DNA of 10,021 nt from a virus, in UHGV virus genome UHGV-1546747, one strand, 5' to 3'. Numbering within the stretch: the stretch's first letter is position 1; each line of letters begins with the position of its first letter. Below are positions 2,863 to 3,104 of this stretch, piece by piece. The notes under the pieces are model-generated. The model was not told the origin of the DNA. It made no database searches and saw only the letters and a list, made by a program, of their open reading frames with translations. The translations under genes were made by a program, and so were the position numbers.

Positions 2863-3063
2863 TCATTTCTCGTTATTTGTCATGCTGGCCGGGCGCAGAT
2901 GCGTTGCATCTGTTGCCAGCCTTCTCCTGCAGGCTTCAATAACCCACGCTGAAAAGTTACCGGACCCTTTATGCTCAAGGGCTATGTTGATTTGTTCAAT
3001 TATGTGATTGGGGAAACGGATATTGCGGGTTGTGGTTCTGCGGGTCCGGTTTTTCGATGACAT
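2863..3063 (-). CDS. Small ribbon-helix-helix (CopG/Arc-like) DNA-binding protein, 66 aa; resembles the YlcI/YnfO (DUF3950) prophage family
   Basis: Minus-strand ATG (plus-strand CAT 3061-3063) with SD AGAGGA at good spacing on the minus strand. Sequence MSSKNRTRRTTTRNIRFPNHIIEQINIALEHKGSGNFSAWVIEACRRRL shows the RHH signature (basic beta-strand RNIRFP, then two helices). From memory, close to E. coli prophage YlcI, which sits before the packaging genes in DLP12. The only clear gene on the minus strand in the window. Confidence 0.7.
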   Translation of the reverse strand: MSSKNRTRRTTTRNIRFPNHIIEQINIALEHKGSGNFSAWVIEACRRRLATDATHLRPASMTNNEK

Positions 3064-3104
3064 TTTCTTTCCTCTGGTGACAAGTTATATGACGGGGATT
3101 TTAC

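Follow-up and report, generated by a model that had tools for sequence, protein, structure and literature searches.

The closest described relatives of the gene studied here are ylcI of the DLP12 prophage and ynfO of the Qin prophage, both in E. coli K-12. In DLP12 the order is ybcW (plus strand), ylcI (minus strand), 388 bp, and nohD (plus strand). ExcludonFinder lists ybcW and ylcI among convergent excludons and detected the pair in at least 50% of the analyzed RNA-seq samples (PMC12288877), which means that ylcI of DLP12, a cryptic prophage, is transcribed. In Qin-type prophages (L005 and L075) the DUF1398 gene ydfO comes after ynfO in the same orientation, and the two genes are listed as an operon (PMC12218254). 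Phage lambda (NC_001416) carries an intact 64-codon ylcI at 48109-48303 on the minus strand. The encoded protein matches K-12 YlcI exactly, and 199 bp separate the start codon from the right cohesive end; the RefSeq record has no feature at this locus. In both lambda and DLP12 a DUF1398 gene and bor follow ylcI on the same strand, with ybcW inserted between. The searchable literature mentions YlcI, YnfO and DUF3950 solely in gene lists, mutation tables and y-ome inventories, with no function described. No functional study of the YlcI/YnfO family was found there, which agrees with the first-pass annotation calling the family functionally uncharacterized.

Here we describe a member of this family in a 10,021-nucleotide stretch of the virus genome UHGV-1546747 (referred to below as the window). 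The protein resembles K-12 YlcI and YnfO in its N-terminal 50 residues, which are near-identical (about 87% identity), and its gene has the same orientation and position beside packaging genes, but the C-terminal tail is unlike that of the K-12 proteins. Over residues 1-52 the lambda product is 86.5% identical to that of the window. Its gene likewise reads leftward and is the final one ahead of cos, with no HNH gene between the two. Upstream of ylcI the window has a 41-bp spacer followed by genes for an HNH protein and a Terminase_2 TerS; in K-12 about 390 bp with a lambda-type cos is followed by Nu1/NohD. Downstream the window lacks the DUF1398 and ybcW genes that are found in K-12. The features of the window are as follows:

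422-1117, plus strand, Ant/KilAC-like gene
1247-1813, plus strand, Rz and Rz1
2390-2731, plus strand, TonB-C lipoprotein moron (Pfam TonB_C, E 1.4e-14)
2863-3063, minus strand, ylcI/ynfO-family gene, 66 aa, ATG start (Pfam, NCBIfam and phrog matches)
3064-3104, divergent spacer of 41 bp between ylcI and HNH, with the ylcI SD, the HNH SD and a -10-like TATAAC inside
3105-3470, plus strand, HNH endonuclease of the type adjoining cos/terminase (Pfam HNH, E 1.8e-6; phrog_589, E 2.9e-40; RefSeq annotation at homologous loci)
3471-3760, repeat-rich intergenic region, probable cos
3761-4324, plus strand, terminase small subunit TerS (Terminase_2)
4321-5982, plus strand, terminase large subunit TerL
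6046-7983, plus strand, probable protease-capsid fusion
8195-9559, plus strand, portal

Gene arrangement and start signals

The coordinates proposed for the spacer proved exact: the HNH ATG is at 3105 and the distance between the two genes is therefore 41 bp. Both ribosome-binding sites lie within it, as had been claimed. Direct reading of the sequence placed the SD of ylcI (GAGG, minus strand) at 3071-3074, 7 nt 5' of the ATG, and that of HNH (GGGG) at 3094-3097. Relative to ylcI, HNH/terminase is divergent, and the TonB-C moron converges on it across a gap of 131 bp. The ylcI gene is also the lone clear minus-strand gene of the late region, all other credible genes of the window being on the plus strand; these parts of the first-pass annotation were borne out. 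In the homologous annotated region L001 the minus strand holds, besides ylcI, just one pseudogene fragment, and in the JLK-2012 prophage every gene of the late region (23 to 50 kb) is on the plus strand, the YlcI gene and one 38-aa ORF excepted.

The spacer has the same length in Stx2a_F349 and BP-4795. Bases 3023-3112 are almost identical in L001, L074 and L076; the near-identical block shared across phages comprises the 5' third of ylcI, the spacer and HNH. The 3' third of ylcI and the DNA downstream are unrelated in these phages, which places a mosaic breakpoint inside ylcI (window 2960-3112).

The intergenic region between HNH and TerS contains a G9 run (3484-3492), a perfect 22-bp palindrome, GCCAGTTAACATGTTAACTGGC, at 3562-3583, and three AAAATGTTAACC-type repeats. 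Phage Lys8385Vzw has a linear record whose end corresponds to window position 3532, and the region 3471-3760 probably contains cos. A link of ylcI to these repeats had been suggested; we found none.

Some further observations concern the neighboring genes. The antirepressor-like KilAC/ANT gene (422-1117) lies on the late strand within the lysis cassette, between the endolysin and Rz positions. The TonB-C protein has a lipoprotein-type signal (LVMGC), and its phrog_1267 label 'Rz-like spanin' is an apparent mislabel, Rz and Rz1 being encoded separately at 1247-1813. The genes after TerL run in the order 645-aa ORF (6046-7983) and portal (8195-9559), the usual order being portal-protease-capsid. 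In relatives the 645-aa ORF is annotated as major capsid protein, and its size fits a protease-capsid fusion.

Family membership and conservation

Assignment of the ylcI product to YlcI/YnfO (DUF3950), which had been proposed conditionally, was confirmed by profile matches above the cut-offs. Pfam DUF3950 (PF13132) matched with E 3.1e-19 and 69 bits against a cut-off of 25, and NCBIfam YlcI_YnfO_N (NF041551) with 35.2 bits against a cut-off of 30; phrog_949 matched at E 8e-33. The family is narrow, with 99 cluster representatives out of 1.84 billion at E 0.001 or better, and its genuine members all belong to Enterobacterales.

Eight residues (I15, R16, F17, F37, S38, W40, V41 and C45) are invariant in 57 of 57 homologues that share 27-97% identity. 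The NFS motif of the family is present in helix 2 as N36-F37-S38-A-W40-V41. Over the first 50 codons the dN/dS ratio to the lambda/K-12 copy was 0.033, with a dN of 0.054 and a nearly saturated dS of 1.65; compared with the Stx-phage type it was 0.09-0.10. Ratios of 0.03-0.10 indicate strong purifying selection on ylcI. The ORF is thus a real, strongly conserved gene, far beyond a chance ORF. It is also an ordinary member of a known and already-annotated family in its usual place, at the prophage lysis/packaging junction and on the opposite strand.

The arrangement is widespread. A 1.5-kb stretch with TonB-C, YlcI, HNH and TerS has matches of at least 80% coverage in 399 complete E. coli genomes, and RefSeq annotates exactly those four products in it. 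Parts of the stretch occur in 1465 of 5426 genomes; a genome has a median of 2 such places and at most 10. Stx1a, Stx2a and Stx2c converting phages and JLK-2012 have the same arrangement as the window, and three GenBank phage records encode YlcI proteins that are 100% identical.

Across these contexts ylcI is the last gene at the right end of the lambdoid late/moron region, always pointing away from the cos/packaging genes and against late transcription. It adjoins cos or terminase in packaging modules of two unrelated kinds: HNH plus Terminase_2 in the window and in Stx phages, and the Nu1/A type of lambda, where it lies beside cos-Nu1 in lambda, DLP12 and Qin-type prophages. In lambda-type prophages the 199 bp from the ylcI start codon to the cos end form a single conserved block. 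The predicted DNA-reading arms of the window-type and lambda-type proteins are identical. An operator common to the window-type and lambda-type upstream regions was not found, neither exact k-mers nor 12-mers with up to 2 mismatches exceeding shuffles.

A separate observation concerns the DNA upstream of lambda ylcI. The sequence GTAGATGATAATCATTATC near the right cohesive end (lambda 48447-48465; L003 3448-3466) agrees with the 19-bp Fur-box consensus in 16 of its 19 positions, with 0 expected in shuffles. K-12 DLP12 (L002) has an equivalent site and the window has none.

Two groups of matches were rejected during collection of homologues. The match in Pasteurella phage Pmp7 is antisense inside an annotated repressor gene. 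Matches in Streptomyces, Cohnella, Pedobacter, Saprospiraceae and other unrelated taxa are probably contamination with lambda control DNA. These suspect sequences lie on contigs of about 3.5 kb or about 200-390 bp in from contig ends, and many are frameshifted. Besides many ENA proteins, they comprise the following loci:

L007-L034, L037, L040, L041, L043, L059 and L061, suspect contaminant loci

Predicted fold of YlcI

An AlphaFold2 monomer model built with 57 sequences was of moderate confidence, with a pLDDT of 65. It shows an extended basic N-terminus, a helix at 19-32, a G-S-G turn and a second helix at 34-55 that carries the NFSAWV motif of the family. A beta-strand is predicted at about residues 12-18 (TRNIRFP) of the basic arm and could form only in a dimer. 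The tail, residues 51-66, is variable and disordered.

The best structural neighbors of the model are ribbon-helix-helix (RHH) antitoxins. The best Foldseek matches were NikR and ParD2, weak at E values of about 6. Profile relations to RHH families were not significant: RHH_1 was matched by 1 of 57 members at E 0.24 and HicB_lk_antitox by 4 of 57 at E 0.022. A phrog_497 HicB-like match of the window protein at E 0.006 gives a hint in the same direction. No sequence relatives in the PDB were found in single-sequence or profile searches. The earlier designation as an RHH protein thus gained weak but consistent support from the model, with its extended N-terminus and two helices, and from its NikR and ParD2 neighbors. 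We consider an RHH fold probable, and YlcI is probably a small, dimeric, RHH-like DNA-binding protein.

Expression signals

A consensus scan found no sigma-70 promoter upstream of ylcI on the minus strand, and likewise none for the lambda or K-12 copies. The promoter had been said to lie necessarily inside HNH. This position is plausible but not required, because a -10-like TATAAC, noted by eye on the minus strand at 3084-3089, sits in the spacer. Only the -35 region therefore need overlap the start of HNH; the matching -35 position would cover its start codon. Between ylcI and the TonB-C gene and in the leader, no terminator or structured RNA stood out beyond shuffled controls. No Rfam families were detected near ylcI in the window, lambda or K-12 at E values up to 1. 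The geometry of ylcI in the window fits an excludon, that is, mutually exclusive overlapping antisense transcription, as listed for the K-12 pair.

Satellite homologues and candidate operators

More distant YlcI homologues, with 36-50% identity, were found in Serratia, Pectobacterium, Klebsiella, Enterobacter, Xenorhabdus, Brenneria, Pantoea and Dickeya. They are located in small P4/PICI-like integrative elements with a P4-type integrase, AlpA and a D5-type primase. Here, too, no other gene shares the strand of the YlcI-like gene, and its divergent neighbor is an Icd-like gene (NF033153, E 1e-15 to 1e-17). Long minus-strand ORFs overlapping these homologues were rejected as artefacts, in which an open antisense frame runs into the real Icd-like ORF.

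Three GTG-N6-CAC 12-mers occur at about -99, -76 and -30 from the ATG of the satellite YlcI-like gene (L044-L073). The centers of the first two agree within a locus (mean 4.6/6) far better than between loci (2.7/6), with a permutation p of 5e-5. Similarity of the centers between loci tracks the similarity of the N-terminal arms (r 0.73, Mantel p 4e-4), a correlation that is confounded because gene and repeats are physically linked, so that co-inheritance alone could produce it. The middle 12-mer is bordered on the Icd strand by a -35-like hexamer, TTGAC(G/C), which lies upstream of the Icd-like gene and primase. The layout is that expected of a repressor with candidate operators over a divergent promoter, and suggests a candidate three-operator switch for the icd/primase operon. 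In the window no GTG-N6-CAC occurs near ylcI; the two copies present are both far off, which is chance level.

Between the YlcI-like and Icd-like genes, a hairpin followed by a T-run is encoded on the YlcI strand. Of its 15 base pairs 4 show compensatory changes, and the element is conserved in the satellites:

about 3805-3880, plus strand, conserved hairpin element (L044, L048, L056, L057 and L065; alignments A5 and A6)

The Rfam SymR model aligned with the hairpin over its full length in 5 of 7 loci, but at sub-threshold scores (35-41 bits versus 61); Rfam C4 and isrK gave no match. The hairpin is antisense over the ribosome-binding site and start codon of the Icd-like gene, which makes it a candidate antisense RNA controlling icd-like translation.

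Some satellites encode fusion proteins in which the YlcI N-domain is joined by a proline-rich linker to the TerS N-terminal HTH of Terminase_2, the remainder of the terminase being absent. The fusion members (P0188, P0292, P0293, P0294 and P0295) are 123-142 aa and full length, at down to 48% identity, and the N-terminal part of P0294 has no DUF3950 match. The HTH domain resembles, by eye, the N-terminus of the window TerS. The fusion loci are:

L073, 4714-5103
L077, 8001-8429
L078, 777-1148

As a Rosetta-stone argument, the fusions give a modest hint that a YlcI module and a cos-recognizing module can act on the same DNA. They may serve as cos-binding decoys. In L077 the satellite (integrase, AlpA-like gene and primase) is itself located between prophage HNH/TerS genes and tail genes. 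This layout fits the 'helper-embedded PICI' arrangement that was described previously (PMC10111431).

Proposed role of YlcI

The reading we favor, to which we would give nearly but not quite an even chance, is that YlcI is a repressor made in the lysogen from a gene that runs against the direction of late transcription. A weak promoter overlapping the 41-bp spacer and the start of HNH would drive production of YlcI as long as the late operon stays silent. The protein would bind DNA sequence-specifically and act as a repressor or autoregulator of a nearby divergent control region. During lytic growth late transcription would run head-on through ylcI and switch it off, by mutual exclusion of the excludon type. 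Family membership and selection, the constant position, transcription of the K-12 copy and the lone-gene setting with operator-like repeats in the satellites argue for this reading. Against it count the missing sigma-70 promoter, the absence of GTG-N6-CAC near the gene in the window, the lack of shared 12-mers and the confounding of the satellite correlation. A target of YlcI in the window phage was not found.

Other roles would fit some of these data. The steady position of ylcI as the nearest non-packaging neighbor of cos/terminase in two unrelated module types, the conserved 199-bp block that reaches the cos end in lambda-type prophages and the fusions to a Terminase_2 HTH would all suit an accessory of cos or packaging. 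Such a protein would bind at or near cos or work with the small terminase rather than regulate transcription; it might protect or mark the prophage cos, or modulate packaging or helper-satellite competition. We regard this as unlikely, if worth keeping in mind, since at the right end lambda packaging needs only cosQ and cosN and no motif is common to the window and lambda-type cos regions. The fusions are rare (5 clusters) and confined to satellites, one of them without a recognizable DUF3950 part. Moreover, ylcI is antisense to the late operon, so YlcI is unlikely to be abundant during packaging. A quite different suggestion is that the gene is only an ORF without function, kept as a recombination linker at a module boundary. 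The breakpoint inside ylcI, with 3023-3112 near-identical while the 3' ends and downstream DNA are unrelated, is what such a linker would show. It is very improbable all the same and largely refuted by the dN/dS values of 0.03-0.10 at near-saturated synonymous change. Also against it are the eight residues that Enterobacterales homologues retain without exception at 30-50% identity, and the intact start, SD and stop in all contexts.

Two further proposals concern the genes downstream. The first-pass annotation had raised an orphan antitoxin-like regulator. In that case YlcI would represent the RHH member of a gene pair, and its partner, a DUF1398 protein such as YdfO/YbcV, would have been lost from this phage. 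The operon of ynfO and ydfO in Qin-type prophages, the co-directional DUF1398 gene and bor in lambda and DLP12, the RHH antitoxins as best structural neighbors and a C-terminal tail that is variable like the partner-binding tails of antitoxins would agree with this. In the window the idea fails, because the co-directional toxin gene of a type II module is absent: no minus-strand ORF of at least 40 aa lies between ylcI and the TonB-C gene (2732-2862). Most satellite homologues likewise have no downstream partner, toxicity of DUF1398 was not found in the searchable literature, and PADLOC gave no defense-system matches for YlcI, TonB-C, Ant, DUF1398 or YbcW. We consider this proposal improbable. 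We also give little credence to a regulator of lysogenic conversion, which would act on host genes or on the neighboring morons (TonB-C lipoprotein, Bor, DUF1398) instead of on phage functions. The gene does lie in a moron zone between lysis and packaging genes, in the orientation typical of morons that lysogens express, bor among them; the copy in the cryptic prophage DLP12 is transcribed, and ydfO, the downstream gene, is stress-induced in K-12 (PMC4077768). However, the neighboring morons are wholly different between contexts in which the predicted DNA-reading arm is identical, and no repeats suggestive of operators occur near the TonB-C promoter.

The repressor reading can be extended to a broader scheme that is speculative and, in our estimate, rather unlikely. 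YlcI/YnfO proteins would be operator-binding repressors of an undescribed three-operator divergent switch, which governs the Icd-like/primase replication operon of P4/PICI-like satellites in Enterobacterales. The cos-adjacent copies of helper phages, including that of lambda, would then be either partners in helper-satellite cross-talk (e.g. through mixed dimers or shared operators) or lysogen-phase guards that silence the cos-cutting HNH/terminase genes. The terminase fusions would be satellite weapons against helper cos.

As a sequence feature ylcI is ordinary, belonging to an annotated family in a layout that is annotated in hundreds of E. coli genomes. The gap is that a strongly constrained gene 200 bp from the lambda cos end, with several copies per pathogenic E. 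coli genome, has no published function. The present comparison adds context in the form of the unannotated lambda copy, the constant orientation, the operator-like repeats of satellites and the fusions to a terminase domain. The satellite homologues lead to a concrete hypothesis, a small repressor with identifiable candidate operators. If correct, it would fill in a missing regulator of phage satellites in Gram-negative bacteria and would suggest why helper phages retain a copy of ylcI beside their packaging genes.

Comparison with known regulatory systems

RHH repressors and antitoxin domains (CopG/Arc/Mnt, ParD, TacA and CopA_SO) are similar to YlcI in size and in having a basic N-terminal arm. 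They also share alternating residues in a short strand, which is predicted for YlcI, followed by two helices with a G-x-S/N turn, and give weak structural matches. Unlike these proteins YlcI has no significant profile match, and neither a toxin partner nor an ant gene that it controls. In P22-type immI regions Arc and Mnt control an adjacent ant gene, whereas the KilAC/Ant-like gene of the window is 1.7 kb away on the late strand, and no Arc or Mnt profile match was found in the window. The window also lacks the operator architecture of the satellites. It is the satellite homologues that come closest to known switches. Like the three-operator OR-type region of lambda and the c4-icd-ant genes of P1 immI, they are located beside operator-like repeats over a divergent promoter, here that of an Icd-like gene. 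The similarity extends to a structured and presumably antisense RNA over the Icd-like start.
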